Source: Candidatus Binatus sp. (GTDB lineage: Bacteria > Desulfobacterota > Binatia > Binatales > Binataceae). Taken from it: a DNA stretch of 64,000 nt. The translations under genes and the position numbers were made by a program. The DNA lies in the NCBI GenBank assembly GCA_050010075.1, contig JBEKLS010000001.1, positions 6,563 to 70,562 on the forward strand, given 5' to 3'. Below are positions 5,786 to 52,481 of this stretch, one piece after another. The number at the start of each line of letters is the position of its first letter. Positions within the stretch are counted from its first letter, which is position 1. Below the pieces are notes generated by a model. It did no database searches. It was not told where the DNA came from and worked only from the letters and a program-made list of their open reading frames with translations.

Positions 5786-6050
5786 GACCTAACCTCCCCT
5801 TGTCCGAGGGGAGGTCGGCGCCAACCGAAGGTGGCGACGGGAGAGGTGCAACGCATGCCATCGCATTTGCGCGCGCATGTCTGTTGTACCGAGTCGAAAA
5901 GTGGTGCCGTCGTCGGGCGGCGGCCCGAGTGTCTATCAATTGCGAACAAGCGAGTAGGCGCTGATGCGCTGTCGGGCGTTGCACCTCACCCGGCGACACC
6001 GCTTTTCAAGCGGCTTGCGCCGACCTCTCCTCGGACAAGGCGAGGTTAGA
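5786..6050. repeat. Long imperfect palindromic (MITE-like) intergenic element, about 265 bp
   Basis: The terminal inverted repeats are cctaacctccccttgtccgaggggaggtcggcgcc (5788-5822) and gcgccgacctctcctcggacaaggcgaggttag (6017-6049). There is internal complementarity (ggtgcaacgc / gcgttgcacc). The element lies between convergent genes. Confidence 0.5.
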
Positions 6051-6078
6051 ACACGGGCTTCCTTCGCTCTCTCAGTTC

Positions 6079-7392
6079 CTACTTAATCGCGAGCGCGTTC
6101 GGCGGCGAGCCCACTCCTCCCGGAATATTCAGCGGCGCGGACGTCAGAAAGAAATCGTAATTCCCATCCGCCGCGCAATCGTCCGCCAGCCCTTCGAGAT
6201 TCCACATCTCGCCTATCGGCATTCCGAAGAACGCGAGCATGTGGAAGTGCAGAAACTCGTTCTCGTTGCCCGGCCCCTTGGGCAACGCCTCGAGCGCCGG
6301 TGAATCCGACGCGACTGCCGCGAGGTGATTGTCCCATAGCCATCTCGCCGTGCGATCGCTGCCTTCGATTCCCGGCGTCACCGTCTCCTTCGCCAACTCC
6401 GCCTTAATCTCATCGCTCGCCGACAGGTAGAACTTCGTCCATCCGATGCGAATCAGCAGAATGTCGCCCGCTTGCAGCGTGACCGCTTCCTCTTCCAGCG
6501 CCGCCTGCACGTCTTCAAGCGGAATCGACTCGGCCTTGGTAAAGGTGATCGACTTGCCGATGCGATCGTAGTACCGCGCCACGTCAGCCAGCACTCCACG
6601 CCCCGCGATTCCGCGCCGCGCTAGGTTGTCGATGCCAAGCCGCATGCCGCCGCGACCGGTGATCTCCTTGTCGGGAATCCCGTTGTAGGCTCCGTGCACG
6701 GGATGCTTCACGTGCGCGAGCGCGTCCCATTGCGAAGACGCCTGCGGATAGAAGTTGTCGAGGTAGTCGTCGAGCACGAATTCCAGGTTCGGGAAAATCT
6801 TGACGGTGTGCGAATGCTTGCCGCGCGTGAACAGCGGCGGGTCGGGAATGTTGATCGGCAGATTCAGCGCGAAAACTTTGCCCGATCGAATCGACGACGC
6901 CGCATCGACCACGCGCGCCGGCGTCAGCAGGTTGATGGTGCCGACTTCGTCGTCGTCGCCGAACACGCCCCACGCCGCGCCCGCCGGCGCGCCTGCCCGC
7001 ACCGGCAGTTCGTCGTAGCTGGGAATCTCCGGCGAAAGCGCAACAGCGTCTTTCATTGCGCGCGTCGCTTTGGCCGCGACCTCGCCGACTTTGCGCACCG
7101 CGGCGCGCTGCATCCTGCCGGCCGCGCTCTCGATATCGACCGCCGCACGCGTCGCCGCGGTTACGATATCGGCAACGGTATCCGCTATCGGCTTGGAGGA
7201 TTTTTTCGGCGCAGGCCGCATCGCGGTCTTGGCCGCAAGTGGGCGCTTTACGGCTTTCGCCGCCGGCTTTTTGGCCTTGACCGCTTTGGGAGCGGCTTTG
7301 CGGGTCTTGGGCGCCGCTTTGATTACTTTCTTTTTGGACTTTGCCACTGACGGATCCTCCTGGATTGCTCGAGCGCGACCGCATCTTCTCAT
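6079..7392 (-). CDS. Cyclase-family (kynurenine formamidase-like) protein fused to a lysine/alanine/proline-rich histone-H1-like N-terminal tail
   Basis: 437 aa. The N-terminal roughly 110 aa are KAAPK/AKK repeats (KKKVIKAAPKTRKAAPKAVKAKKPAAKAVKRPLAAK). The C-terminal roughly 300 aa have putative-cyclase-family motifs (HVKHPVHGAYNGIPD, GIDNLARRGIAGRGVLADV, LLIRIGW). Confidence 0.7.
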   Translation of the reverse strand: MRRCGRARAIQEDPSVAKSKKKVIKAAPKTRKAAPKAVKAKKPAAKAVKRPLAAKTAMRPAPKKSSKPIADTVADIVTAATRAAVDIESAAGRMQRAAVRKVGEVAAKATRAMKDAVALSPEIPSYDELPVRAGAPAGAAWGVFGDDDEVGTINLLTPARVVDAASSIRSGKVFALNLPINIPDPPLFTRGKHSHTVKIFPNLEFVLDDYLDNFYPQASSQWDALAHVKHPVHGAYNGIPDKEITGRGGMRLGIDNLARRGIAGRGVLADVARYYDRIGKSITFTKAESIPLEDVQAALEEEAVTLQAGDILLIRIGWTKFYLSASDEIKAELAKETVTPGIEGSDRTARWLWDNHLAAVASDSPALEALPKGPGNENEFLHFHMLAFFGMPIGEMWNLEGLADDCAADGNYDFFLTSAPLNIPGGVGSPPNALAIK

Positions 7393-8429: not shown

Positions 8430-8795
8430 ATGGCTGACGAGGAACGATCGGAACGAGGCGGCGACCGGCCGCGCGAGGGCGGCGGCGGACGCTACGGCGG
8501 CCCGCGTCCTGAAGGCGGCGATCGCGGCGATGGCCGTGGCGGCGAGGGTCGCGGCGGCGGGATGCGTCGCGGGCGGCCGGGTGGACGGCGCAAGGTGTGC
8601 CGCTTCTGCGCCGACAAGACGCTCAAGGTCGATTACAAGGACGTCCGCACGCTCGGCAGTTTCATCACCGAGGGCGGCAAGATCGTGCCGAGCCGGACCT
8701 CGGGCAACTGCGCCAAGCATCAGCGCCAACTGGCGGTCGCGATCAAGCGCGCGCGCGTGCTCGCGTTGCTGCCGTTCTCGACGCTCGGAGTTTAG
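8430..8795 (+). CDS. rpsR: 30S ribosomal protein S18 with an Arg/Gly-rich N-terminal extension
   Basis: The C-terminal [63 protein letters not shown] is canonical S18. Confidence 0.9.
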
Positions 8796-14085: not shown

Positions 14086-14205
14086 TCCCCCTTCCACCAG
14101 GGGAAGGGGTTAGGGGTTCGGTCGCTTGCATCGACCGCTAAGCTGGCGAACGGGGTTTTGTGTCATCCCGAGCGCAGCCGAGGGACCCCGGATCTTTCTC
14201 GGCGC
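14086..14205. repeat. Composite repeat: cccttccaccaggggaagggg motif plus a partial TGTCATCC MITE
   Basis: 14088-14115 matches 25584-25612. 14161-14205 (tgtcatcccgagcgcagccgagggaccccggatctttctcggcg) matches 28797-28845. Confidence 0.55.
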
Positions 14206-14283
14206 AAAGACACTTCGACCGCGCTGAAGGCCCGCGAAGCCGAGCTGCTCAGAATCCGCTATGCTCAGACGAAGGTGGAAACG

Positions 14284-14733
14284 ATGAAAACTCGGAGCGT
14301 TCGAGCGATCAAGAGTCCGGGAGCGTTGGAGCCTTTCCTCGCGATTCGGACCGTCCGCGAGTATGACGCGTCCGTCGAGCACCTCAACACGCTAGTCGAT
14401 GAAATCGGCGACAACACCAGGGACCCGCGCTATCGCCTGATCGAAACGCTGAGCGTGCTTATCGAAGCGTACGACCGCGAGCATCATAGTCCGCCGGAGG
14501 CTTCCGGCGTCGAAGTGCTTCGTTTCCTGATGGCGGAGCACGATCTCACTCAAAAGGATCTTCCCGAAATTGGCAGCCAGGGCGTCGTCTCCGAAGTGCT
14601 GGCCGGACGCCGCCATCTCAACGTGCGGCAAATTCAGGCGCTCGCCGCCCGCTTCGGAACTGATCCAGGCACCTTTATATATGAACCTCGTAGCGTTCCT
14701 CGCCGTCATCGCGAACGAGCTTCAGCGAGCTAG
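14284..14733 (+). CDS. XRE-family helix-turn-helix protein (HigA-2-like, HTH at the C-terminus)
   Basis: The start is MKTRSV... at 14284; the upstream part of table ORF 14158..14733 is translated repeat. The HTH is LTQKDLPEIGSQGVVSEVLAGRRHLNVRQIQALAARFG. Confidence 0.55.
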   Translation: MKTRSVRAIKSPGALEPFLAIRTVREYDASVEHLNTLVDEIGDNTRDPRYRLIETLSVLIEAYDREHHSPPEASGVEVLRFLMAEHDLTQKDLPEIGSQGVVSEVLAGRRHLNVRQIQALAARFGTDPGTFIYEPRSVPRRHRERASAS

Positions 14734-15637: not shown

Positions 15638-16381
15638 TCAGCGGGAGCGCTCCGGATCTTGCTGCGGTTCGAGGATCACTTCGACCGGGCATGCCCCCGC
15701 CGGCGAGTTCAGAATCTGCATCACCGCCTGGGCGACGTCGGCCGTGGAGAGCATCGCGCCGCGATCGAGACGCTTGTTATCCGGGATCAGCGCGGTGTCG
15801 ACCAGGCCCGGAACGATGACGCTGAGTTTGAGGCCGCTCCGCCGCATCTCGTGAAAGGCCGCGCGCGTGAATGCGATCAGCGCCGACTTGGTCGCGGCGT
15901 AAACCGCTTCGCCTGCGGAGGCCTTGATCGCGGCTGTCGAGGCGACGTTGATAATCGTACCTGCGCCACGCGGAGTCATCGCCGCGGCGGCCAGCCGTGT
16001 GAGGGCGATCGGCGCGCGCAGATTTACGGCGATCATGCGGTCGAGATCAGCCGTACGCATCTTGAGCAGCGGCGTTCGCGACGGCGCCCATCCGGCGTTG
16101 TTAACGAGCACGTCGATATGTCCATAGCAATCCAGCGCGGTGCCGATTAACTGGTCAGGGGCCTCTTCGCTGGCTAGATCGACCAGCACGATCAGCGCCT
16201 GCTTCGGCGCCAGACCGCTCTGGGAGCGGGTTTCCTCGAGTTCGTCGCGCGATCGCGCGGCGAGGCATAGCGAGTAGCCGGCGCGCGCGAGCTCCAGTGC
16301 GACCGCGCGCCCGATACCGCGGCCGGCGCCGGTTACGACTGCGACGCGGTCGGCGGATGTAGCCGCGGCGGTCATTTGCAA
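15638..16381 (-). CDS. SDR-family oxidoreductase
   Basis: VVTGAGRGIGRAVA Rossmann motif; S-Y-K catalytic-triad spacing (NVASTAAIKASAGEAVYAATKSA). Confidence 0.8.
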   Translation of the reverse strand: MQMTAAATSADRVAVVTGAGRGIGRAVALELARAGYSLCLAARSRDELEETRSQSGLAPKQALIVLVDLASEEAPDQLIGTALDCYGHIDVLVNNAGWAPSRTPLLKMRTADLDRMIAVNLRAPIALTRLAAAAMTPRGAGTIINVASTAAIKASAGEAVYAATKSALIAFTRAAFHEMRRSGLKLSVIVPGLVDTALIPDNKRLDRGAMLSTADVAQAVMQILNSPAGACPVEVILEPQQDPERSR

Positions 16382-16422
16382 ACATCTTGCGCTGAGTTAG
16401 TAGCTCGCACAGACTGACGATA

Positions 16423-17778
16423 ATGAATTCGCAAGTGTTCCGCGAGTACGACATCCGCGGCATCGTCGCCGACGATTTCGATGACGACTTCGTAATCGAT
16501 CTCGGGCGCGGCTACGCGACGCTGTTGCATCGCGCGGGCAAGAAAACCATCACGCTCGGCCGCGACTGCCGGCTATCCTCGGATCGCCTGCGCGACGCTC
16601 TGGCCGAGGGTCTGCTCGGTGCCGGTATCGACGTCGTCGACATCGGCGTGGTGCCGACGCCGCTGCTTTATTTTTCCATGCTGAGCTGGAAGATGGACGG
16701 CGGCGTGATGATCACCGGCAGCCACAACGCGGCCGAGTACAACGGCTTCAAGCTGGGCGTGGGGCCGACGACGATTCACGGCGCGGAGATTCAAAGGCTG
16801 CGCGAAATAATCGAGCGGCGCGATTTCGTTACGACAGGCGCGATGGGCTCGTTCTCCGAGCGCGCTGTGATTCCCGACTACAACGATTTCATCATGTCGC
16901 AGTTCAAGCTCAAGCCCGGACTCAAGGTGGTCGTGGACGGCGGCAACGGATGCGGCGGCGTGATCGCGGCCCCGCTGATGAAGCGTCTCGGGCTCGACAC
17001 GATCGAGCTCTACACAGAGATGGACGGCCGCTTCCCGAACCATCACCCCGACCCGACGGTCGAGGAGAACATGCGCGATCTGGTCGCGGCGGTGAAAGAG
17101 AATCACGCGGCGATCGGAATCGCATACGACGGCGACGCCGACCGCGTCGGTGCGGTGGACGAGAACGGCAAGATCGTGTGGGGCGACGAGCTGATGGTCG
17201 CGTTCTCGCGCGCGATTCTGCGCGATCGCCCGGGCGCGACGATTATCGGCGACGTGAAATGCTCGAAGCGGATGTACGACGATATCGCGCACAACGGCGG
17301 GCGGCCAATCATGTGGAAGACGGGGCATTCGCTGATCAAGAGCAAGCTGAAGGAGGAGCACGCGGCGCTGGCGGGTGAGATGAGCGGGCACATGTTCTTC
17401 GCTGACCGCTACTTCGGCTTCGACGACGCCATCTACGCGTCATTCCGCCTGCTCGAAATCGTCAGCCGCGAGGGCCGCGGACTCGCTGCGATTCTCGCCG
17501 ATCTTCCCGCTAGCCACTTCACGCCGGAGATTCGCGTCGATTGTCCCGACGATCGAAAGTTCGAAGTGGTGCGGCAGGCGGCTGATTTTTTCCGCCAGCA
17601 TTACGAGGTTATCGACATCGACGGCGTGCGGGTTAATTTTGCCGACGGATGGGGCCTCGTGCGCGCGTCGAATACGCAGCCCGCGCTGGTGACGCGCTTC
17701 GAAGCGACCAGCGAAAAACGCTTGTCCGAAATTCGCGCGCTGTTCGACGGCAAACTGCGCGAACTCGGCGCGATCTGA
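16423..17778 (+). CDS. Phosphomannomutase / phosphoglucomutase
   Basis: FREYDIRGIV, the active-site TGSHNAAEYNGFK, and the metal loop DGDADR. Confidence 0.9.
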   Translation: MNSQVFREYDIRGIVADDFDDDFVIDLGRGYATLLHRAGKKTITLGRDCRLSSDRLRDALAEGLLGAGIDVVDIGVVPTPLLYFSMLSWKMDGGVMITGSHNAAEYNGFKLGVGPTTIHGAEIQRLREIIERRDFVTTGAMGSFSERAVIPDYNDFIMSQFKLKPGLKVVVDGGNGCGGVIAAPLMKRLGLDTIELYTEMDGRFPNHHPDPTVEENMRDLVAAVKENHAAIGIAYDGDADRVGAVDENGKIVWGDELMVAFSRAILRDRPGATIIGDVKCSKRMYDDIAHNGGRPIMWKTGHSLIKSKLKEEHAALAGEMSGHMFFADRYFGFDDAIYASFRLLEIVSREGRGLAAILADLPASHFTPEIRVDCPDDRKFEVVRQAADFFRQHYEVIDIDGVRVNFADGWGLVRASNTQPALVTRFEATSEKRLSEIRALFDGKLRELGAI

Positions 17779-23047: not shown

Positions 23048-23076
23048 CGCCTCTCCCTGTCGGGGAGAGGTCGCGC
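23048..23076. repeat. REP-like palindrome, family A (gcctctccctgtcggggagaggtcgc)
   Basis: A stem-loop palindrome 10 bp after the PBP stop codon. Confidence 0.6.
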
Positions 23077-23231: not shown

Positions 23232-24659
23232 GTGGTGACCGCCGAGTTCCGGAGCCGAGCACGCTTGCAAGATCATCTGCATAACAGCCCGCGATGGGCT
23301 CGAATTGCGCGCGCAGCGCTCGCCGCCGCTGGACTGATCGGTCTGCTCGCCGCGAGCGGATGCATCAACGAATCGCCGTCGCATGACTCATCGGCCATCG
23401 ACGATCCCGCCGTCTCGCACGGCAGCCAGGCCGCGACCCACAATGCCAAGGCGGCGATTCCCGACGCGGGTGACGTGCTGATTGCGGGCGGCGCTGACGC
23501 CTCGAATCGAAGTCTCGCGAGCGCGGAGTTTTTCGATCCGGCGTCGGGCCAGTTCGTCGCGACCGGAAGCGGGGCGTTGAGTCGCGCGAGCGCATCTGCG
23601 GCTGCCCTTTCGGGGAGCCAGGTGCTGCTCGACGGTGGCTTCAGCGGCGATGCTGCGATTAAGAATTTTTCGCTCAACCTCGAAGGCAAGGTGCTGGGCA
23701 GCGCGGAGATTTTCGACGAGACGACCGGCACCTTCTCACTCGCCGGCCGGATGACCACGCCGCGGATGGGTTTCACGGCGACCGCGCTCACCAACGGCAA
23801 GGTGCTGCTGGCCGGCGGCTTCGACGATCAAAACAATGTGCTCGACACCGGCGAGCTGTACGATCCCGTCGCGCACAAGTTCTCCCTGGTCACCAACACG
23901 ATGAGCGATCGGCGCGCCTTTCACAGCGCGACGCTTCTGCTGAGCGGCAAAGTGCTGCTGGCCGGCGGCGCGACCAACCTCACCGGCGACACGACCAACT
24001 CCGCCGACATCTATGATCCCGCGTCGAACTCGTTCACGCCCGCGACCTTCCCGATGGACCATCAGCGCGCCGCGCATACCGCGACGCTGTTCGCGACGGG
24101 CCCGCTGGCCGGCAGGGTGCTGATAACCGGCGGCGTCGGCGGCTCGAGCTTCTTCTTCAAGGACAGCAGCGCCGAGATTTACGATCCGACGTCGCAGGAA
24201 TTCAGCCTGCTCTCCAGCTTCATGAACGAGCCGCGCTCGATGCATACCGCGACGCTGCTCGACGACGGCACCGTCCTGCTCGCCGGCGGCTTCAGCGGCA
24301 CCGTCGCAGTTTCGGGCGGCGTGTTATCGGGCGCGTCGGGTTTGATCAGCAATTCGGCTGAGACCTTCGATCCGAACACCGGCGATTTCACTTGCGTCGG
24401 CGGATTCAACACCGACACGACGCGATGCAACCAGTCGATGACCTCTGCGCGCGCGGGGCATACTGCGACGCTGCTCGGGAGCGGCCCGACGCCCCACCGA
24501 GTGCTGATTGCCGGTGGAATCGGCGCCGCCGATCCTGCCGCGCACGGCCTCGAGCTCAGCAGCGCCGAGCTGTTCAATCCCGCGGGCGGCGGCAGTTTCG
24601 CCGCGACCGGCTCGATGGCCACTGCGCGCGCCCTTCACACCGCGACTCTGCTCCGCTAG
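23232..24659 (+). CDS. Kelch-repeat beta-propeller lipoprotein
   Basis: The lipobox is LLAASGC. Kelch repeats recur (GKVLLAGG..., repeated RxxHTATLL units). Confidence 0.75.
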   Translation: MVTAEFRSRARLQDHLHNSPRWARIARAALAAAGLIGLLAASGCINESPSHDSSAIDDPAVSHGSQAATHNAKAAIPDAGDVLIAGGADASNRSLASAEFFDPASGQFVATGSGALSRASASAAALSGSQVLLDGGFSGDAAIKNFSLNLEGKVLGSAEIFDETTGTFSLAGRMTTPRMGFTATALTNGKVLLAGGFDDQNNVLDTGELYDPVAHKFSLVTNTMSDRRAFHSATLLLSGKVLLAGGATNLTGDTTNSADIYDPASNSFTPATFPMDHQRAAHTATLFATGPLAGRVLITGGVGGSSFFFKDSSAEIYDPTSQEFSLLSSFMNEPRSMHTATLLDDGTVLLAGGFSGTVAVSGGVLSGASGLISNSAETFDPNTGDFTCVGGFNTDTTRCNQSMTSARAGHTATLLGSGPTPHRVLIAGGIGAADPAAHGLELSSAELFNPAGGGSFAATGSMATARALHTATLLR

Positions 24660-25539: not shown

Positions 25540-25583
25540 GCAGCAAGCGCCCGGGCAACACGCACCAGCGTCACAAATCTGGT

Positions 25584-25878
25584 TCCCCTTCCACCAGGGG
25601 AAGGGGTTAGGTTAGGTCGCTCGCATCGTTCGCGATGCTTTTTTGTCATCCTGACGAGCCGAGCATCGCGAGGGGAGGAAGGACCTCGGACAGCTTCGCG
25701 CAAGCGAAGCCGGTTCCGGTTTCCGAAATCGCGCAGCGCTCCATTTTTCTGATCGTGTCACGCAGGCCGCCGGAATCTCATCGGATGGCAGCAATCCAAA
25801 ACCGGAACCGGCGGCGCTTGCGCCCCGCTGTCCGAGATCCTTCCATCCGTTCGCTGTTGCTCGCTTCGTCAGGATGAC
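25584..25878. repeat. Composite repeat: cccttccaccaggggaagggg motif plus a complete 235-bp MITE with TGTCATCCTGACGA terminal inverted repeats
   Basis: The terminal inverted repeats are 25644-25657 and 25865-25878. The internal inverted repeat is ccggttccggttt / aaaccggaaccgg. Confidence 0.6.
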
Positions 25879-26054
25879 AGGCCAGATGCGCGCCCCCGCG
25901 CACTGCCTATTGACTATACGACCTTGCGACCTTACCTTTGACAATGCACCCGGCCGGATGGTTGCATCCATCGCCGGGTCGTTTTGCGTCAACGTTGATC
26001 CGATTCCAGGGACAATTCGCGAGCCGTTAATCCAACTCGAGAGCGTCGCACGTC

Positions 26055-27971: not shown

Positions 27972-28104
27972 CCAGCGCAGCGCCAGATACCGGATTGGGT
28001 AGCGCCAGCGAGCACCGAGAAAAATCCGGGGTCCCTCGGCTACGCTCGGGATGACACGGAAAAAAAAGTTCGAACAGGGACGAAGTCCCGCATCTTTCTT
28101 CTAA

Positions 28105-28163
28105 TACTGGGTGCAGGGGTCACCCTTGCCCAAGGAAGCGTGAAACCCACGGAGGGGTTTCAC
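28105..28163 (+). repeat. Family B 63-bp two-hairpin element, copy 1
   Basis: tactgggtgcaggggtcacccttgcccaaggaagcgtgaaacccacggaggggtttcaca. Confidence 0.55.
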
Positions 28164-28228
28164 ATTCAATCAAGTGATTTCCCCGCGCACGCACATCCGC
28201 GCTACGATTCTCGTAGAGGTTTCCCCCA

Positions 28229-28714
28229 ATGCCCATCGAGATTCGACGCGCTACTGAATCTGATATCCCCGAACTCTCGCGCCTGGTCGCCGGGCTGGCC
28301 GCATGGGAACAGTCTCTCGACCCGCGCGTGCAATTCGATTGGGACGGTATTCGCGACGCGCCCAACTGGCTGAAACTCGTGCTCAATCGCGCCCATCATG
28401 CGGTCTGGGTCGCCAGTTCCGACGGCCGCCTTGTCGGCCATCTGTGGATTCGTCTCAAGCGCCAGGCCGACGGCGCGATTCCTCAGTCCATCGGCTATAT
28501 CAGCCAGGCTTTCATGGACGAGAACTTCCGGGGACGCGGGCTAATGAAGCCGATGCTCGAGGCGGCCTACGAATGGTTCCGCGACGCCGGCATCACGGTC
28601 ATCACGCTGAGCGTCCTGCACCGCAACTGGGTCGGCGCCACAGCATGGCATCGTCTCGGCTTCAGCGACTGGCGCGAAGAGCGCCGAATGGACCTGAAAC
28701 CCCGCCCAAAGTAA
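28229..28714 (+). CDS. GNAT-family N-acetyltransferase
   Basis: Motif A is QAFMDENFRGRGLMKPMLEAAYEWF. 161 aa. Confidence 0.8.
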   Translation: MPIEIRRATESDIPELSRLVAGLAAWEQSLDPRVQFDWDGIRDAPNWLKLVLNRAHHAVWVASSDGRLVGHLWIRLKRQADGAIPQSIGYISQAFMDENFRGRGLMKPMLEAAYEWFRDAGITVITLSVLHRNWVGATAWHRLGFSDWREERRMDLKPRPK

Positions 28715-28756
28715 GCCCGTCGCCCACCGGCTTTCTTTTTGTGTTTTCTTATTCTT

Positions 28757-28975
28757 TGTGTCATCCCGAATCCTTTGGTCATCCCGGGATCTTTGTGTCA
28801 TCCCGAGCGAAGCCGAGTGGACCCCCGAATCTTTCTCGGCGCCCGCCAACGCACCCCCAACCACGGCTCGACCGCTCCGCCCGCCATGTCATTCTGAGCG
28901 AAGCGAAGAATCCCGGATCTTTCTCGACGCTCGCAACGCACCCCCAACCACGGCTCAACCACTCCGCTCGCAGCA
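28757..28975. repeat. Tandem cluster of TGTCATYC MITE heads and halves (VILSEAKNP-type repeat)
   Basis: Three gtcatcccg heads are at 28759/28778/28797, and a tgtcattctgagcgaagcgaagaatcccggatctttctcg unit is at about 28884. It matches 52188-52336 and 14161-14205. Confidence 0.6.
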
Positions 28976-29196
28976 CCTCTGACCGCTCGGATAGCTCGAT
29001 AATTACCCTTGACAACCCAACGCAATCGCTTTACTAGACTGAATGGGTCCAGTATTCCCAAGAGACGGTTTCCATTTGACTGCTCGCGGATAAGCCTTAT
29101 ACTATACCTAGCAGGTCCACTATTAGGGATTATCGCGTTTCTGGCGCCAACAAACCCGGGAAGCACTGAATAGATACTGGAAAAACCGAGACCACG

Positions 29197-37736: not shown

Positions 37737-37877
37737 CTCAGCTAACGCGCATCCTCCCGCGCGTTGGTTGACGACAAGCGCGCCCCGTCCCCTCCCGGCG
37801 GGGCGCGTTTCTTTTTTCGGACGGGCAAAGTCGGAACCAGGAATTCGGACCCTCACCCGCCGCTCGAAGACGAGCGT

Positions 37878-37901
37878 CGGCCTCTCCCTGACAGGGAGAG
37901 G
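37878..37901. repeat. REP-like palindrome, family A (ggcctctccctgacagggagaggc)
   Basis: Palindrome with an upstream ggaccctcacc flank, as in the 42614 copy. Confidence 0.6.
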
Positions 37902-37962
37902 CTACATGACCCTCCCCCAAAACCCCGAGCGGAAGCGCGTCCGCGCGATTTCGCTCTCTGAA

Positions 37963-38028
37963 TACCGGGTGCAGGGGTCACCCCTGCCCAAGGAGGTGCG
38001 GAACCCACGGCGGGTTCCGCATTTAAAT
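37963..38028 (+). repeat. Family B two-hairpin element, copy 2
   Basis: taccgggtgcaggggtcacccctgcccaaggaggtgcggaacccacggcgggttccgcatttaaat. Confidence 0.55.
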
Positions 38029-43927: not shown

Positions 43928-44207
43928 ATTGCTCGGTTACCGCGCCCGGGCTTCACGACGAGCGGCGGTTCCGATTGGCTCCAGTCTGGCTCGATTTGCG
44001 GTCAAATGCGCGTCGGAATTAGCTACCTGTTTGCGGAAGATTTGACAATACTGACCTTTCAGGTGTTAGGGAAATGCTTTAATTAGCCCGTTAAAATCTG
44101 GCCGGGAACGCTCAGGAACGAATGAAACAATAGCCTCGGCTTTTCGGCAACCAGTCAGGTTGACGAGTGCCACGCCAGACCTTCAGCCTTGAACCATCGA
44201 AAGAGGC

Positions 44208-45131
44208 TCACAGTTTTTCCGGCAGGATACAGTCGGACGGCTTCTTGTCATCACGCAGGCCTAGAAAGACCGGCTGGCGTAGCTTCCGGTCGGCCGTCCA
44301 TTCCTGAAAAGCGATCTGCGCTACCAGGCGCGGCCTTAGCCAGGTCGTGTTTTTCTCCCGGGGCGGTTCGATGAAAGGCGGCTTGCTGACGACGAGCGGA
44401 AGAAATGTCCTGGCGAGTGCGCCAAGAATCTTCTGAGTGAAACCGGTCCCGACTTTGCCGACAAAGTGCAGGTCCTTGCCGCGATAGGCACCGAGCAGAA
44501 GGGCTCCGAGATGCAGCCGGCTGCCCTCAGGAGCGGTGAAGCCGCCAATGACGAATTCTTCCTCCTGATGCGCCTTGACCTTGAGCCATTTCCTCGAGTG
44601 GCCCTCCTGGTAGGAAGAAGCGCTCTCCTTGGCAACTATTCCTTCGAAGCCTCTGCGCTTGGCGATGCTATAAGCAGTGACACCGTTCTTCGACAGGCGT
44701 CGTGAAATGAGGAGCTCTTTTGACGGTTTCGCAAGCACGGCCTCCAGCTCGTCACGGCGGCGAGAAAGAGGCTGGGAGCGGAGATCACGTCCGTTGCGAT
44801 AGAGGCAATCGAAGACTGCGAAGCGCTGCTCGACGTCGCCACGCTGCAGCAACTGAAATCGCGAAACCTCCTTCGAGTCGAATGCTACGACTTCTCCATC
44901 GAGGAGTACCGTACGTTCCGGGAGCTGAGCTATCGCCGCGGCGACGGCGGCAAACGTAGCAGTCCGGTCGAGCTGATTTCGAGACAGCAGTGTTACCTTC
45001 GCGCCTTCCTTGTAAGCGAGGATGCGGTAGCCGTCGTACTTCTCCTCGTAGACCCAGTCGGGCTGGTGAAAGGGTTTCGGCACCAGTGACGCAAGCATCG
45101 GATGTACTCGGATGGAGATGCGTTCGCTCAT
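44208..45131 (-). CDS. ATP-dependent DNA ligase (LigD ligase-domain-like, stand-alone)
   Basis: Motif I (EEKYDGYR) is present and motif V-like (EGIVAK) is probable. Local GC is lower than the surroundings. Confidence 0.8.
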   Translation of the reverse strand: MSERISIRVHPMLASLVPKPFHQPDWVYEEKYDGYRILAYKEGAKVTLLSRNQLDRTATFAAVAAAIAQLPERTVLLDGEVVAFDSKEVSRFQLLQRGDVEQRFAVFDCLYRNGRDLRSQPLSRRRDELEAVLAKPSKELLISRRLSKNGVTAYSIAKRRGFEGIVAKESASSYQEGHSRKWLKVKAHQEEEFVIGGFTAPEGSRLHLGALLLGAYRGKDLHFVGKVGTGFTQKILGALARTFLPLVVSKPPFIEPPREKNTTWLRPRLVAQIAFQEWTADRKLRQPVFLGLRDDKKPSDCILPEKL

Positions 45132-45251
45132 ACTCTGACCTTTGACATGCGCATGGCCTCGTCCACCGACGGTAGTATCACTCTACCGGGGCAGGGATGT
45201 CTGGTCTGTACGGCGGATTGATCGGGGAGTAAGAACGAAAAGTCCGGGTCG

Positions 45252-45896
45252 ATGGAGAGCGCTATGGACGATGCAGTCAAGGCAGTCCTGAAAGAATATG
45301 AAGCCCGCAACGTTAAGGAGCGGGCCATGATGCCGGGGCTCATGAACGGCACCGTCAATCGGGACGAACTGTTGCTCGCGGTAGGCCCGGAAAGTGGCGC
45401 CTTGCTCAGAACGCTGGCTCAGGGTTGCGCGGCCACTCACATCCTCGAACTTGGAACCTCGTATGGTTATTCGACCCTGTGGCTTGCGATGGCCGCCAAG
45501 GCAACCGGCGGCAAGGTGACGACCTGCGACGTCGCGCCGTCCAAGCAGGAGTATGCCAAGGCGGCGCTGACCAGGGCGGGGCTGGTCGATTACGTCGTGT
45601 TCAGGCCGGGCGACGCGCTGCAAACTATCCCGACTCTCGCCGACGGGATCGATTTCGTTCTGGTCGATCTCTGGAAGGATCTTTACGTCCGATGCCTCGA
45701 GCTGTTCCTGCCCAAGCTCAAACCCGGCGCGATTCTGGTGGCCGACAATATGCTGCAGCCAGTCCAGGCGCGGCAGGACGCACTCGCATATCGCCGCGCA
45801 GTGCGCGCTGTCCCGGGCATGACCTCGGTGCTTCTCTCAGTGGGTAGCGGGCTCGAGGTCAGCCGTTTGAAGGGACCGCTGGACGAAGGCGTGTGA
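45252..45896 (+). CDS. Class I SAM-dependent O-methyltransferase (caffeoyl-CoA OMT-like)
   Basis: ILELGTSYGYSTLWLA, DFVLVD. Confidence 0.8.
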   Translation: MESAMDDAVKAVLKEYEARNVKERAMMPGLMNGTVNRDELLLAVGPESGALLRTLAQGCAATHILELGTSYGYSTLWLAMAAKATGGKVTTCDVAPSKQEYAKAALTRAGLVDYVVFRPGDALQTIPTLADGIDFVLVDLWKDLYVRCLELFLPKLKPGAILVADNMLQPVQARQDALAYRRAVRAVPGMTSVLLSVGSGLEVSRLKGPLDEGV

Positions 45897-45897
45897 C

Positions 45898-46971
45898 ATG
45901 AAATTCGGAATTTTCGACCATCTGGAACGGCGTCACGATTGCGACCTAACGCAGCAGTACGAAGAACGTCTGCAATTGATGGCTCAGGCGGACGACGCGG
46001 GAATTTACGGCTATCACATAGCCGAGCATCATCACTCGCCGCTCTGCCTCGCGCCAAACCAATCGGTGTTTCTGGCGGCCGCCGCGCAACGCACCAGGAA
46101 TCTGAAGATCGGTTCTCTGGTCTATGTGCTCCCGCTCTATCATCCGATACGGCTGCTCGAAGAGATTTGCATGGTCGATCGGCTGAGCAATGGCCGCGTG
46201 CAAGTTGGCGTAGGGAAGGGCGTGCTGGGAGGGATTGAGCTGGCGTTATGGGGTGGTGCTGCATCCAATACGGACAGCCTGTTCCGCGAGACGCTGGAAA
46301 TCCTGCTCAAAGGTTTCAAGGAAGAGTTCCTCAGCTTCGAAGGCGAGCATTACCAATTCAAAAATCTCTGGATGGAATTGCGGCCGGTGCAAAGACCGCA
46401 TCCGGCCTTCTGGTACGCTGGCAATCCGCTGCATGCCGGCGAACTTGGCATGAACTTCATTGGCGGAGGACCAATCAGTTCCGTCAAGCGCGCGGTTGCT
46501 ACATATCTGGCGGCGCTGAAGCTCAGCCAGTCAAATCCGTCGTCGTGCACAGCGACACTCGACAATCCGCTCTACGGCGGAATTCGTCACACGTTCGTGG
46601 CCGATACCGACGCGGAAGCGATAGAGCGGGCGCGCGAGGCATATGAGGTTTATCGCGGGCATTTTGCCAAGCCGCAGCCAAACGGCCGCGAGCTGCCTGC
46701 CTCCCCGGCGCATCTTGCAGGTCCTGCGGCCCTTAGTCCCGACCAGGCGATGTCAGCCGAGATCCTGCTGGCCGGCTCGCCCTCAACGGTTCGCGACTAC
46801 GCGCTCCGCTACGCCGCCGAATCTGACGCGAATTACTACGTGAGCGCGTTCTCATGGGGCGACCTCACGCATCAGGAGTCGTCGAAGTCGCTCAGGCTCT
46901 TCGCTGAAGAGGTGATGCCCGCGATTGTCCCTCGTGCTCAATCGCGCGAGGCCGGAACCGCCACTGTTTGA
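45898..46971 (+). CDS. LLM-class flavin-dependent oxidoreductase
   Basis: MKFGIFDHLE is a luciferase-like N-terminus. Confidence 0.8.
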   Translation: MKFGIFDHLERRHDCDLTQQYEERLQLMAQADDAGIYGYHIAEHHHSPLCLAPNQSVFLAAAAQRTRNLKIGSLVYVLPLYHPIRLLEEICMVDRLSNGRVQVGVGKGVLGGIELALWGGAASNTDSLFRETLEILLKGFKEEFLSFEGEHYQFKNLWMELRPVQRPHPAFWYAGNPLHAGELGMNFIGGGPISSVKRAVATYLAALKLSQSNPSSCTATLDNPLYGGIRHTFVADTDAEAIERAREAYEVYRGHFAKPQPNGRELPASPAHLAGPAALSPDQAMSAEILLAGSPSTVRDYALRYAAESDANYYVSAFSWGDLTHQESSKSLRLFAEEVMPAIVPRAQSREAGTATV

Positions 46972-46973
46972 CT

Positions 46974-47036
46974 CTAATGAAACCCACGGTGGGTTTCATG
47001 CTTCCCTATGGGCAGGGGTGACCCCTGCACCCAATG
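46974..47036 (-). repeat. Family B two-hairpin element, copy 3 (inverted orientation)
   Basis: The reverse complement matches taccgggtgcaggggtcacccctgcccatagggaagcatgaaacccaccgtgggtttca. Confidence 0.55.
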
Positions 47037-47111
47037 GCTTGTTTTCGCCCAATCTTACTGGACTTGCGCCGGAGTAAACCCCTAGTTTATCGCTCTGCTG
47101 GGGGGCAGCGA

Positions 47112-48656
47112 ATGAAAACTTCCTGGGGGAAAGCACGCATTGGCTCGATTGCGGCCTTGACCGCGATCATCGTCATCGCGACGCAGACAGCATCGCACGC
47201 GCAGTTGGCTACGACCTCGTGGCCGATGCTCAGCCACGACGTCCGGCATACCGGGCTCAGCACGGTAGATACCAGCGCCAACCCCGGCAAGCTGAAGTGG
47301 GTATACGACATGGTCGATCAACACGACACGTCGCCGATCTGCCTCGATGGCTCGCCGGTGATCGGCGCCGACGGAACCATTTATGCTGGCTGCGACGAAT
47401 TTCTCTACGCGGTAAACCCCGACGGCACGCTGAAATGGAAGTTCGCAACTAGCCTCGCGATCGAATCCTCGCCGGCCATCGGGGCTGACGGAACTATCTA
47501 CGTCGGCTCCTTCGACGACAATCTTTACGCGGTAACTGACGGGGGCCAGGGCACTGTCACGGAGAAGTGGGCGTTTGCAACCGGCGACGATGTGGATTCC
47601 TCGCCAGCGATCACCGCCGACGGAACCATTTACTTTGGCTCCACCGACGACAACCTGTACGCAGTCAATCCCGACGGTACACAGAAATGGAAGTTCGCAA
47701 CCGGCGATTCGGTTGAATCCTCGCCGGCGATCGGCGCCGACGGGACCATCTACGTTGGCTCCGATGACGACAACCTCTACGCATTGACTGACGGCGGGCA
47801 AGGCACTGTCACGAAGAAGTGGGCGTTTCCAGTCGGCGGTAGTATGTACGGCTCGCCTGCGATTGGCGCCGACGGGACTATTTACGTCGGCTCGGCTGAC
47901 GACAACCTCTACGCGCTAACCGACAACGGCAGCAGCGTCACGCAAAAGTGGAAGTTCGTAACCGGCGGCGGTGTGGATTCCTCGCCGGCGGTAGGCGCCG
48001 ACGGCACCATTTACGTGGCGTCCAACGACGACAACTTCTACGCGCTAACCGACAGCGGCGCCAGCGCAACGGAGAAGTGGGCGTTCCCGGGTGGTGCTGT
48101 TTTCGGCTCCTCTCTCACGATCGGCGCCGACGGCACCATCTTCGGCAGTTCAGAAAATGGGAACCTTTACGCCCTGACGGACAACGGCACCAGCGCGACG
48201 GAGAAGTGGGTGATCGCGGTAGACGGCGGGCTCTCCGCGCCAGTGATCGGCGCCGACGGCACTGTCTATGTGGGCGGTACGAACATCGACGACCTTTTCG
48301 CCGTGGGAATTCCGCCGCCGCCGGTAGCGGTCAAGCTGAAGCTCAGTGAGACGTCGATCAACTTTGGTACGCTGAAACCCGGCAGGTTTAAAAATCAGTA
48401 CATCACCGTGAGCAACCCCAAGGGCAGCAAAACGGCGCCCGGGCTTACCGTGGCGATGCAGGGGCAGCGGCTCAGCGGACATGGTGACTTCACGCTGACG
48501 AACTATTGCGCCACACCGCTGCCGGCAGGCCAGAAGTGCCAGGTCGAAGTAACGTACCAGCCCTCCGGCCGGGGATCGGAAGCACGCACCCTGATGATCT
48601 TCGACAACGCGGACAACTCGCCCCAGATAGTAAAACTCAAGGGCCACGGCGGATAG
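47112..48656 (+). CDS. Secreted PQQ-like beta-propeller repeat protein with a C-terminal beta-sandwich domain
   Basis: The signal peptide is MKTSWGKARIGSIAALTAIIVIATQTASHA. About 9 repeats of SSPAIGADGTIYVGSxDDNLYAL occur. Confidence 0.75.
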   Translation: MKTSWGKARIGSIAALTAIIVIATQTASHAQLATTSWPMLSHDVRHTGLSTVDTSANPGKLKWVYDMVDQHDTSPICLDGSPVIGADGTIYAGCDEFLYAVNPDGTLKWKFATSLAIESSPAIGADGTIYVGSFDDNLYAVTDGGQGTVTEKWAFATGDDVDSSPAITADGTIYFGSTDDNLYAVNPDGTQKWKFATGDSVESSPAIGADGTIYVGSDDDNLYALTDGGQGTVTKKWAFPVGGSMYGSPAIGADGTIYVGSADDNLYALTDNGSSVTQKWKFVTGGGVDSSPAVGADGTIYVASNDDNFYALTDSGASATEKWAFPGGAVFGSSLTIGADGTIFGSSENGNLYALTDNGTSATEKWVIAVDGGLSAPVIGADGTVYVGGTNIDDLFAVGIPPPPVAVKLKLSETSINFGTLKPGRFKNQYITVSNPKGSKTAPGLTVAMQGQRLSGHGDFTLTNYCATPLPAGQKCQVEVTYQPSGRGSEARTLMIFDNADNSPQIVKLKGHGG

Positions 48657-48725
48657 CGGAAATCGCGATCGGCAGGCAAAAGAACCTGAGAGCAAAATGG
48701 CGTCCTTGCCATTTTGCCCGACTAG

Positions 48726-48789
48726 TACCGGGTGCAGGGGTCACCCCTGCCCAAGGAAGCATGAAACCCAGGCGGGTTTCATTTAAATA
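48726..48789 (+). repeat. Family B two-hairpin element, copy 4
   Basis: taccgggtgcaggggtcacccctgcccaaggaagcatgaaacccaggcgggtttcatttaaat. Confidence 0.55.
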
Positions 48790-48912
48790 AACTCGTTCCA
48801 ACTGCGCTCTTCTCTCTCGGTTGACGCGCATCTGTTAATTCCATAAAAAACGAGTTCGGCCTCAGGACTTTTCGCGACTCTACGTTAACCGGAAGAAGGC
48901 AGCCCGACTGAT

Positions 48913-52112: not shown

Positions 52113-52134
52113 GCCTCTCCCTATCAGGGAGAGG
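52113..52134. repeat. REP-like palindrome, family A
   Basis: gcctctccctatcagggagagg, 7 bp after the lyase stop. Confidence 0.6.
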
Positions 52135-52187
52135 TTTGCCTAACCTCGCGACCGTTCCGTCTTTTTCGCTCCGCGCGAAGCGCTCCA

Positions 52188-52336
52188 TGTCATTCTAGAG
52201 CGAAGCGAAGAATCCCGGATTCGGCGAAGCACTGAACTTCGGAACAACCGGCCTTCGCCGTGGTCGCTCCGTGGTTGAGGGTGGAGCGGTTGGCGCCGAG
52301 AAGGATCCGGGATTCTTCGCTGCGCTCAGAATGACA
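52188..52336. repeat. Complete 149-bp MITE with TGTCATTCT...AGAATGACA terminal inverted repeats
   Basis: tgtcattctagagcgaagcgaagaatcccgg ... ccgggattcttcgctgcgctcagaatgaca. Confidence 0.6.
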
Positions 52337-52387
52337 AAAGAGGAGGCGGCAGTTCGTTGTTTCCGTCTCAACGCAAGTTAAACAAAG

Positions 52388-52409
52388 GTCCTCCCTGACA
52401 GGGACAGGC
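52388..52409. repeat. Degenerate family A palindrome (gtcctccctgacagggacaggc)
   Basis: Imperfect copy. Confidence 0.4.
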
Positions 52410-52481
52410 TATTCTGAGCGCGCCAAGTGCAGTGCGTTGTTGCTACGCGGGCTTGAAAATGTCACAACAGATGGTTCGGGC

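Follow-up and report, generated by a model that had tools for sequence, protein, structure and literature searches.

Short repeats headed TGTCATYC lie at gene ends in a 64-kb stretch of Candidatus Binatus sp. DNA (64,000 nucleotides of contig JBEKLS010000001.1, hereafter the window), and they raise the question of what kind of element they are and what propagates them. The original prediction took them for a family of miniature inverted-repeat transposable elements (MITEs). Our analysis shows that the TGTC repeat family in the window is real, and that its conserved unit is a 26-nt tagged hairpin module and not a transposon bounded by terminal inverted repeats. The repeats are probably TGTC/CGTC-tagged elements of the repetitive extragenic palindrome (REP) type in a Candidatus Binataceae chromosome, and small hairpin repeats of this type describe them better than classical MITEs do. 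The nearest DNA relatives of the window are Binataceae or Binatus metagenome-assembled genomes (MAGs), and close homologues of its HpcH-like protein are likewise named as Candidatus Binataceae.

The core common to all copies comprises 26 nt, GTCAT-Y-C-Y-GAGCG-N-AGC-(C)-GA-G-G-R-AT-C, and mostly follows a T. It is composed of an unpaired (T/C)GTC tag and an imperfect hairpin, AT(Y)CC-GA-GCGNAGC-(C)GA-GG(R)AT, written as DNA d(ATCCCGAGCGAAGCCGAGGGAT). In the hairpin, a 5-bp stem starting with an A-T pair is followed by two tandem G·A mismatches, an inner GC/CG pair and a G-N-A triloop, with a bulged C in some copies; alternatively, it can be read as 8 stem positions, 2 of them non-Watson-Crick, and a 6-nt loop. 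In this genome, a T-run lies 5′ of the core while CCCGGATCTTTCTCGGCGC and a 40–50-nt tail lie 3′ of it, giving units of 92–96 nt; the lineage-specific tail of the unit spans 20–70 nt in this lineage. Units occur singly, in head-to-tail tandem, or as inverted doublets with the tags outward. The tagged-hairpin anatomy is that of a REP and the inverted doublet is REPIN-like (a REP doublet forming a hairpin), not that of a DDE-type MITE.

Copy statistics were taken over 152 unique copies, for which GTC was fixed by the search pattern and the preceding base was left free. It is T in 74% of the copies and C in 21%. Positions 5 and 22 form C-G in 92 copies and T-A in 56, with 4 mismatches, and T at position 7 goes together with the no-bulge GAAG version. 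All four bases occur at the loop position N. The stem is followed by C and then by T (70%) or C (23%), the window copies reading CCC(G). In an alignment of 52 sequences, the outermost pairs are A-T in 44 and T-A in all 52, and the proposed register leaves 97.5% of cells paired, as against at most 57% in slid registers. Moreover, one stem pair of this alignment shows 23 double changes, and none of 500 shuffles reaches the observed values. The stem covariation includes G·T intermediates.

The copies are not confined to the window, and the core recurs far beyond this lineage. We scanned the degenerate 26-mer over one genome per GTDB species (596 Gb), in which ~0.14 chance matches are expected by calculation with uniform base composition. 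It is present in at least 120 genome stretches and, among the matches listed, in at least 15 phyla; the hosts in that list belong to Acidobacteriota, Bacteroidota, Verrucomicrobiota, Planctomycetota, Chloroflexota, Bacillota, Pseudomonadota (alpha, beta and gamma), Bdellovibrionota, Myxococcota, Nitrospirota, Armatimonadota, Cyanobacteriota, Binatota, Patescibacteria and Hydrogenedentota. The carriers include cultured isolates of Hymenobacter, Pontibacter, Methylophaga, Dialister and Vasconcelosia, and also Calothrix and Granulicella; 16 stretches of IMG/VR contigs contain the 26-mer. Flanks outside the core are conserved within a lineage only. For example, Hymenobacter copies have GAAC directly beyond the tag and Acidobacteriaceae copies CCTTT, and the 5′ flank of the core is T/C-rich with no fixed word. 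An inverted partner lies within 260 nt of 40 of the 84 intergenic copies; for roughly half of them, an imperfect one is found 60–180 nt downstream, and dimer forms of 75–180 bp are common in other phyla. In three Acidobacteriaceae loci (L019, L031 and L079; L numbers denote the loci compared), a larger-loop variant, TTGTCATCTCGACCGGAGCGTAGCGGAGTGGAGAGATC, stands near a standard core, suggesting a wider GTCAT-tagged superfamily.

By crude gene calls, the 84 cores lie between tandem (52), convergent (23) or divergent (9) genes, and singletons point with or against the gene about equally often (15 same, 14 opposite), both orientations being found in the window. The scarcity of cores at divergent sites and the lack of an orientation preference speak against an RNA role tied to one strand, and in favour of an element that works as DNA and that selection removes from promoter regions. 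The repeats could in principle be structured RNAs or cis-regulatory elements (stabilisers in the 3′ untranslated region, terminators or hairpins bound by a protein) that selection maintains at the level of the transcript, an explanation that gains from their location 3′ of stop codons, from the G·T intermediates in the covarying stem, and from the report of REPs as RNA elements in some species (PMC3733652). We consider it distinctly unlikely, given the random orientation, the lack of any Rfam match for the TGTC units (whole window at the gathering threshold, elements permissively), and the presence or absence of copies at the same sites in relatives 82–96% identical whose flanking genes are unchanged. 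A terminator role was also rejected: the T-run precedes the hairpin instead of following it, so there is no terminator geometry, and the sole terminator-like match belongs to the leader module described below.

To place the copies in the window, a covariance model of the core was built from copies in other genomes and then run on the 64 kb. It returned six significant cores, with E from 2e-10 to 3e-3:

14156–14193, + strand: core, 47.4 bits, E 2.6e-10
28024–28061, − strand: core, 47.6 bits, E 2.3e-10
28791–28829, + strand: core, 35.4 bits, E 3.6e-7
28882–28918, + strand: core, 31.1 bits, E 4.9e-6
52183–52220, + strand: core, significant match
52305–52341, − strand: core, significant match

Weak matches (E 1.7 and 4.5) fell on both ends of the 25644–25879 palindrome and on a stub at 28754–28778, and the window total is six cores, two variant cores at the ends of the 236-bp palindrome, and two deleted stubs. 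The tag reads TGTC in every window copy. Three stem versions are present: TCCC/GGGA, ATTCT/AGAAT, and ATCCT/AGGAT with a larger loop. The cores belong to the following units:

14156–14251, + strand: singleton TGTC unit of 96 nt, made up of T-run, TGTC tag, core hairpin (14162–14187), CCCGGATCTTTCTCGGCGC and tail
25644–25879, no strand assigned: 236-bp inverted dimer, TGTCATCCTGACGA...TCGTCAGGATGACA; both ends carry variant cores with a larger loop, and the interior a long inverted repeat
28012–28057, − strand: singleton TGTC unit, 93% complementary to 14160–14205 by self-BLAST and repeat finding
28759–28794, + strand: two stubs (28759–28776 and 28777–28794), read from the sequence, in which tag and tail remain and the hairpin is missing between short direct repeats
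28795–28886, + strand: first head-to-tail TGTC unit, 92 nt, with the CCC/GGG stem variant and one inserted base
28887–28980, + strand: second tandem TGTC unit, with the ATTCT/AGAAT stem, no-bulge variant
52188–52336, no strand assigned: 149-bp inverted dimer with tags outward, from inverted repeats and DNA fold

Reading of the sequence, with self-BLAST and repeat finding, thus upholds TGTCATYC-headed repeats at all four places named in the original prediction, which had overlooked the further copy at 28012–28057 (− strand). The copy that it called partial, at 14086–14205, is instead the complete 96-nt unit 14156–14251, which is 85% identical over 96 nt with positions 8596–8689 of an unrelated contig, L003, with unrelated flanks. 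The element placed at 25584–25878 is indeed a palindrome with an internal inverted repeat, its bounds and size being corrected to 25644–25879 and 236 bp; a one-armed relative lies at L134 5312–5412. The tandem cluster at 28757–28975 is confirmed as head-to-tail units starting at 28795 and 28887 behind two stubs, the repeat extending to ~28980. The 149-bp element at 52188–52336 was correctly delimited and is an inverted dimer with tags outward: its right arm and interior make up one 92-nt-type unit reversed, and its left arm is a core of 33 nt carrying one inserted nucleotide. All window copies are intergenic and lie 3′ of a stop codon, as had been stated, and between same-strand genes, not between convergent ones.

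The repeats produce spurious open reading frames (ORFs) and false N-termini. ORF 14158–14733 begins inside the repeat, as predicted, and ATG 14276 is likely its true start. ORF 28303–29037 had been thought to be translated repeat throughout; most of it reads the GNAT acetyltransferase gene 28229–28714 (Pfam) in another frame, and only its last ~220 nt, ~28757–28980, are repeat. The translated strings CHPERSRG, VILSEAKNP and VIPSEAEES are useful filter flags in MAG annotation.

Two long, perfect-ended palindromes of the form TGTCAT...ATGACA, 149 and 236 bp in length and with terminal inverted repeats of 33–46 nt, are found in the window. As single-stranded DNA, both are far more stably folded than shuffled sequences (z = −9.4 and −11.7), the dimer at 52188–52336 with −51.7 kcal/mol (z = −9.35) and the one at 25644–25879 with −84.1 kcal/mol. 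Such copies favour a classical MITE, that is, an internally deleted derivative of a DDE-transposase insertion sequence (IS) whose TGTCAT... terminal inverted repeats are recognised by a transposase acting in trans: their sizes are MITE-like, and the 75–180-bp dimer forms of other phyla agree with them. TG...CA termini are, in addition, typical of several DDE families. We nevertheless regard this explanation as highly improbable. Terminal inverted repeats bound the repeat at only 2 of the 5 places in the window (25644–25879 and 52188–52336), so that the consistent ends assumed for the family are found in part; the other places hold one-ended singletons or head-to-tail tandems (14156, 28012, 28795 and 28887), which make up most copies. 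The sequence outside the tag is lineage-specific, indicating that the core is not a true terminus everywhere, and conservation of a 26-nt end over at least 15 phyla is not typical of IS termini. Furthermore, the element is almost absent from PLSDB (72,556 plasmids) and from phage genomes, the plasmid matches to the window variant being those in Calothrix and Granulicella, with none for the common variants.

The search for a mobilising system points the same way. Dimers from many genomes are flanked by no target-site duplication, and empty-site comparisons at 25.6, 28.0 and 28.8 kb reveal no duplication either; the only one, at 52.1 kb, is an 18–21-bp hairpin located 53–54 nt off the dimer ends. 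We found neither an autonomous nor a full-length element in the ~1.8 Mb of loci searched. The long inverted pairs of L053 (1.2 kb) and L037 (3.2 kb) were considered as autonomous elements and rejected, as they enclose rpsT and thrB/sdhB-type genes and no transposase. The original prediction was right about small, non-coding, multi-copy and polymorphic repeats, some of them with terminal inverted repeats. Its observation is therefore largely confirmed, while its MITE reading is supported only in part, because neither a target duplication nor a parent IS, which are defining features of a MITE, was seen in the loci searched.

The original prediction had also suggested looking for a cognate transposase or a partner of the REP-associated tyrosine transposase (RAYT) type. 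Neither the window nor ~1.8 Mb of loci yielded a gene flanked by TGTC units and encoding a transposase, RAYT or other. A tblastn search with E. coli RayT gave no match, and one with 15 RAYT/TIRYT sequences (from PMC3733652) over 1.76 Mb gave a single match, in Hymenobacter L038, where a TGTC dimer lies 30 nt upstream of the RAYT gene. This link was rejected: the orthologs in L217–L220 lack the dimer and the RAYT of L219 is flanked by GTAG REPs, so the adjacency in L038 is attributed to chance. Quentin et al. (2018) tie no Y1 class to such repeats (PMC6006769). The striking point is a 26-nt core that is near-identical across most bacterial phyla, with no linked enzyme found in these loci.

Comparison with close relatives, namely orthologous metagenome loci (L137–L140) and an ENA contig (L221), 95–96% identical, shows polymorphism at the repeat-bearing sites, a check that the original prediction had suggested. 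Presence or absence differs at five sites among relatives 82–96% identical, with flanking genes unchanged; at four the window carries a repeat-bearing block that relatives lack, and at one the reverse holds:

25560–25906: leader and 236-bp dimer in the window; 17 bp in L138 and L140
27972–28228: singleton and second hairpin module in the window; 19-bp spacer in L138 and L140
28715–29006: stubs and tandem units in the window; absent from L138 and L140, unrelated DNA instead in L139
52135–52390: 256-bp block holding the 149-bp dimer in the window; absent from L221
58710–58751: one small hairpin in the window; inverted leader hairpin and 92-nt TGTC unit in L221

Differences between relatives this similar indicate recent gain or loss. 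The 27972–28228 copy is also present in L137, where a further leader-type module of 118 bp abuts the tag. In the relatives' IscS neighbourhoods, 665 kb contain 3 cores, compared with at least 6 in the 64-kb window, which argues that the TGTC family has expanded in this lineage. TGTC units sit 3′ of genes and upstream of the next promoter: the insertions lie between the upstream stop codon and promoter-like sequence kept in relatives (for example CCTTGACAA before the aminotransferase gene and, at 25.9 kb, CTATTGACTA).

Further differences from the relatives were observed in the same stretch. The GNAT acetyltransferase gene 28229–28714, flanked in the window by TGTC units whose tags face the gene, is present in L138–L140 and missing in L137 and L160; at the gene junction, L137 has a degenerate ...CCCGAAATGAC remnant. 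A 4.7-kb segment (window 44091–48815 versus L221 7646–7749) is absent from L221, which is 95% identical and has at this site ~100 bp with a CCCCTTCCC...GGGAAGGGG hairpin. The segment includes a gene, 47034–48656, with eight tandem coding repeats of ~129 nt. L221 has in turn an extra 360-bp ORF-bearing insert (16219–16579, versus window 57561), ending in the palindrome GGTACTGGCGTCATTCGAATGACGCCAGTACC. The window gene 23232–24659 encodes Kelch repeats (Pfam Kelch_1-6) and is the source of several direct-repeat families. The repeats mark structural-variation hot spots in Binataceae, at intergenic blocks, the GNAT gene and the 4.7-kb segment.

The TGTC units do not stand alone. The motif reported before two of the copies is confirmed as a 21-mer, CCCTTCCACCAGGGGAAGGGG, with exactly two window occurrences, at 14089 and 25586, and 0 in 100 shuffles; at both sites it is trailed by GTCGCTYGCATCG. 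It belongs to a leader, a separate hairpin-repeat module 5′ of the TGTC unit. Another family, of xTAG-tagged CCTCTCCC hairpins, brackets the block at 52.1 kb:

14088–14135, + strand: leader module, hairpin CCCTTCC-ACCAGG-GGAAGGG, then TTAGGGGTT and GTCGCTTGCATCG
25585–25643, + strand: second leader module, same hairpin, then GTCGCTCGCATCG, a terminator-like hairpin (25623–25638) and T6; DNA fold z = −4.05
52113–52133, + strand: xTAG-tagged hairpin CCTCTCCCTATCAGGGAGAGG, left copy of the pair bracketing the 256-bp dimer-holding block
52391–52411, + strand: right copy of the bracketing hairpin, TCCTCCCTGACAGGGACAGG, from the alignment with L221

The leader and the CCTCTCCC hairpins are hairpin-repeat families other than the TGTC units, with which the xTAG-tagged hairpins and a GGGTGCAGGGG module share mosaic clusters at 14.1, 25.6, 28.0–29.0 and 52.1–52.4 kb. 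The order of leader, then TGTC unit recurs in L137 and in an Oscillospiraceae MAG (L101), which fits mosaic clusters like the bacterial interspersed mosaic elements (BIMEs). In L101, three tandem 386-bp mosaics lie upstream of gyrB (5960–7000), each consisting of GGGGAAGG-type hairpins, a GTAG REP, a GCTTGCATCG word and a TGTC dimer, in the module order of the window leader. Hairpins of the form CCTCTCCC-n5-GGGAGAGG occur in the window at 23049, 36358, 37880, 42614, 52113 and 58696, with variants at 5792 and 6011–6049; they carry a GTAG-, ATAG- or CTAG-like tag, often stand beside GGGTGAGGG, and resemble GTAG-type REPs. One copy (37849–37904, − strand) gives a sub-threshold match to Rfam Whalefall-1 (RF01762), at 22.7 bits versus a gathering score of 37. 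A two-hairpin family, GGGTGCAGGGGTCACCCCTGCCC followed by GTGAAACCC-ACGGC-GGGTTTCAC, is located at 28093–28201, 37927–38017 and 48690–48780 (+ strand) and at 47009–47033 (− strand), and also in the Binataceae relatives L091, L135, L137 and L221; it has no Rfam match.

How might the TGTC units spread? Under the REP-type reading, a trans-acting enzyme would copy them as single-stranded DNA folded into a hairpin, reading tag and loop and tolerating compensated stem changes; an HUH/Y1-type transposase or another hairpin-processing enzyme is the candidate. Afterwards, short-homology recombination among neighbouring hairpin repeats may shuffle or delete whole blocks. A broader proposal, which we put forward tentatively and think rather unlikely, is an orphan, essentially pan-bacterial selfish or commensal element, whose core would stay almost unchanged in at least 15 phyla through being read by a conserved enzyme encoded elsewhere, and which would insert beside or into hairpin repeats, duplicating them; the enzyme could then be a housekeeping function that processes single-stranded DNA or hairpins, or an as yet unrecognised transposase.

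Recombination might also suffice without any transposition: units could be duplicated passively, or shifted as cassettes, when the abundant neighbouring hairpin repeats undergo short-homology recombination, gene conversion or replication slippage. The 256-bp block at 52135–52390 fits this explanation: it is bracketed by two hairpin copies, to both of which the single hairpin of L221 (11049–11066) aligns, and it contains unique DNA beside the dimer. Two hairpins of this sort also bracket the L134 copy, the difference at 58.7 kb is a replacement and not a simple insertion, the stubs at 28759–28794 look like deletions between short direct repeats, and L101 has its three tandem mosaics. The junctions at 52.1 kb thus suit hairpin-repeat recombination or deletion as well as insertion. 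We still judge recombination by itself unlikely as the whole explanation, as it leaves unaccounted for one 26-nt core at unrelated loci with unrelated flanks in at least 15 phyla, and a conserved loop and tag beside a covarying stem.

The closest published relatives are the CGTC-tagged REPs of Di Nocera, De Gregorio & Rocco (2013, BMC Genomics 14:522; PMC3733652). As described there, they form a superfamily whose tag is often TGTC or CCTC, whose stems begin with A-T, and which occurs mostly as head-to-head dimers 3′ of ORFs, rarely between divergent genes, in five phyla, including RPE-6/RPE-4 of Rickettsia and dRS3 of Neisseria; no dedicated transposase is assigned to it there. Measured against this description, the TGTC units are alike in the unpaired (C/T)GTC end tag, the A-T stem start (ATTCC...GGAAT), the GNRA-like or GAA-containing loop, and the occurrence as singletons and predominantly inverted dimers in extragenic positions 3′ of ORFs in several phyla; nor was an associated transposase found here, in the window and ~1.8 Mb of loci. 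Their translations are analogous as well: the CGTC-1 peptide given in that text, VIPAKAGI, back-translates to GTCATTCCCGCGAAAGCGGGAATC, the core here being GTCATTCCGAGCGAAGCCGAGGAATC, and the window family yields VIPSEAEES/VILSEAKNP. They differ, on the same description, in a tag that is mostly TGTC and in a spread over at least 15 phyla versus 5. Full-text literature searches on the core sequence and its translations returned no relevant paper.

Several points weigh against assigning the repeats to REP-type elements. Published CGTC families, as described in 2013, have an uninterrupted 8–9-bp stem, a 4–5-nt loop and the tail consensus CCA, whereas the stem here is 5 bp, two G·A and 2 bp, often with a bulged C, and the CCA tail is missing. 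On its own, a core hairpin is weak, −2 kcal/mol with z ~0 under nearest-neighbour DNA parameters. GNA triloops and tandem G·A pairs are more stable than nearest-neighbour models predict. The covariation comes down to essentially one base pair and a bulge/no-bulge switch, and could stem from a few founder subfamilies that have been much copied. The mobilising enzyme was not found in the loci searched, and the single-stranded-DNA/HUH step is one that we infer. In the cleanest polymorphism, the block at 52135–52390, the dimer is surrounded by 53 and 54 nt of unique DNA, which, together with the duplicated bracketing hairpin, suggests that the block may reflect recombination or deletion and not transposition. 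Finally, comparisons of the L138–L140 type and with L221 define no insertion boundary to the base: junctions are too diverged in relatives 82–88% identical, and gene order there differs in more distant relatives.

Among other known systems, the REPIN-RAYT system (Bertels & Rainey 2011) is similar in its short tagged hairpin unit, in inverted doublets that fold into a long hairpin, and in decaying, intergenic singletons without target duplication. Its tag, however, is GTAG and not TGTC or CGTC, no RAYT flanked by TGTC units was found in the loci searched, and REPINs are lineage-specific whereas the TGTC core spans many phyla. Bacterial MITEs such as Correia and Nezha share the size of 75–240 bp, the dimer-form terminal inverted repeats, the non-coding nature and the inflation of ORF calls; they differ in that neither target-site duplication nor parent IS is seen here, many copies are one-ended or tandem, and the conserved part is a structured 26-mer, not the whole element. 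The BIMEs of E. coli resemble the window clusters as mosaic intergenic arrays of several hairpin-repeat types in variable order and orientation, but are unrelated in sequence and belong to a different host phylum. The IS200/IS605-derived PATE (palindrome-associated transposable element) has differing subterminal hairpins in the same orientation and inserts 3′ of a fixed tetra- or pentanucleotide, while the ends of a TGTC dimer are inverted copies of one hairpin and the units show only a T/C-rich 5′ flank.

The CGTC-tagged REPs are thus matched in tag, A-T start, dimers, placement and apparent orphan status, and not in stem and loop size or in the CCA tail, so we class the TGTC family as a new member of this kind, set apart from the four published families as the 2013 paper describes them. 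Its wide spread without a linked transposase bears on the question raised in 2013 of what propagates CGTC/TGTC-tagged REPs, and its core pattern offers a handle for profiling their propagation across genomes.

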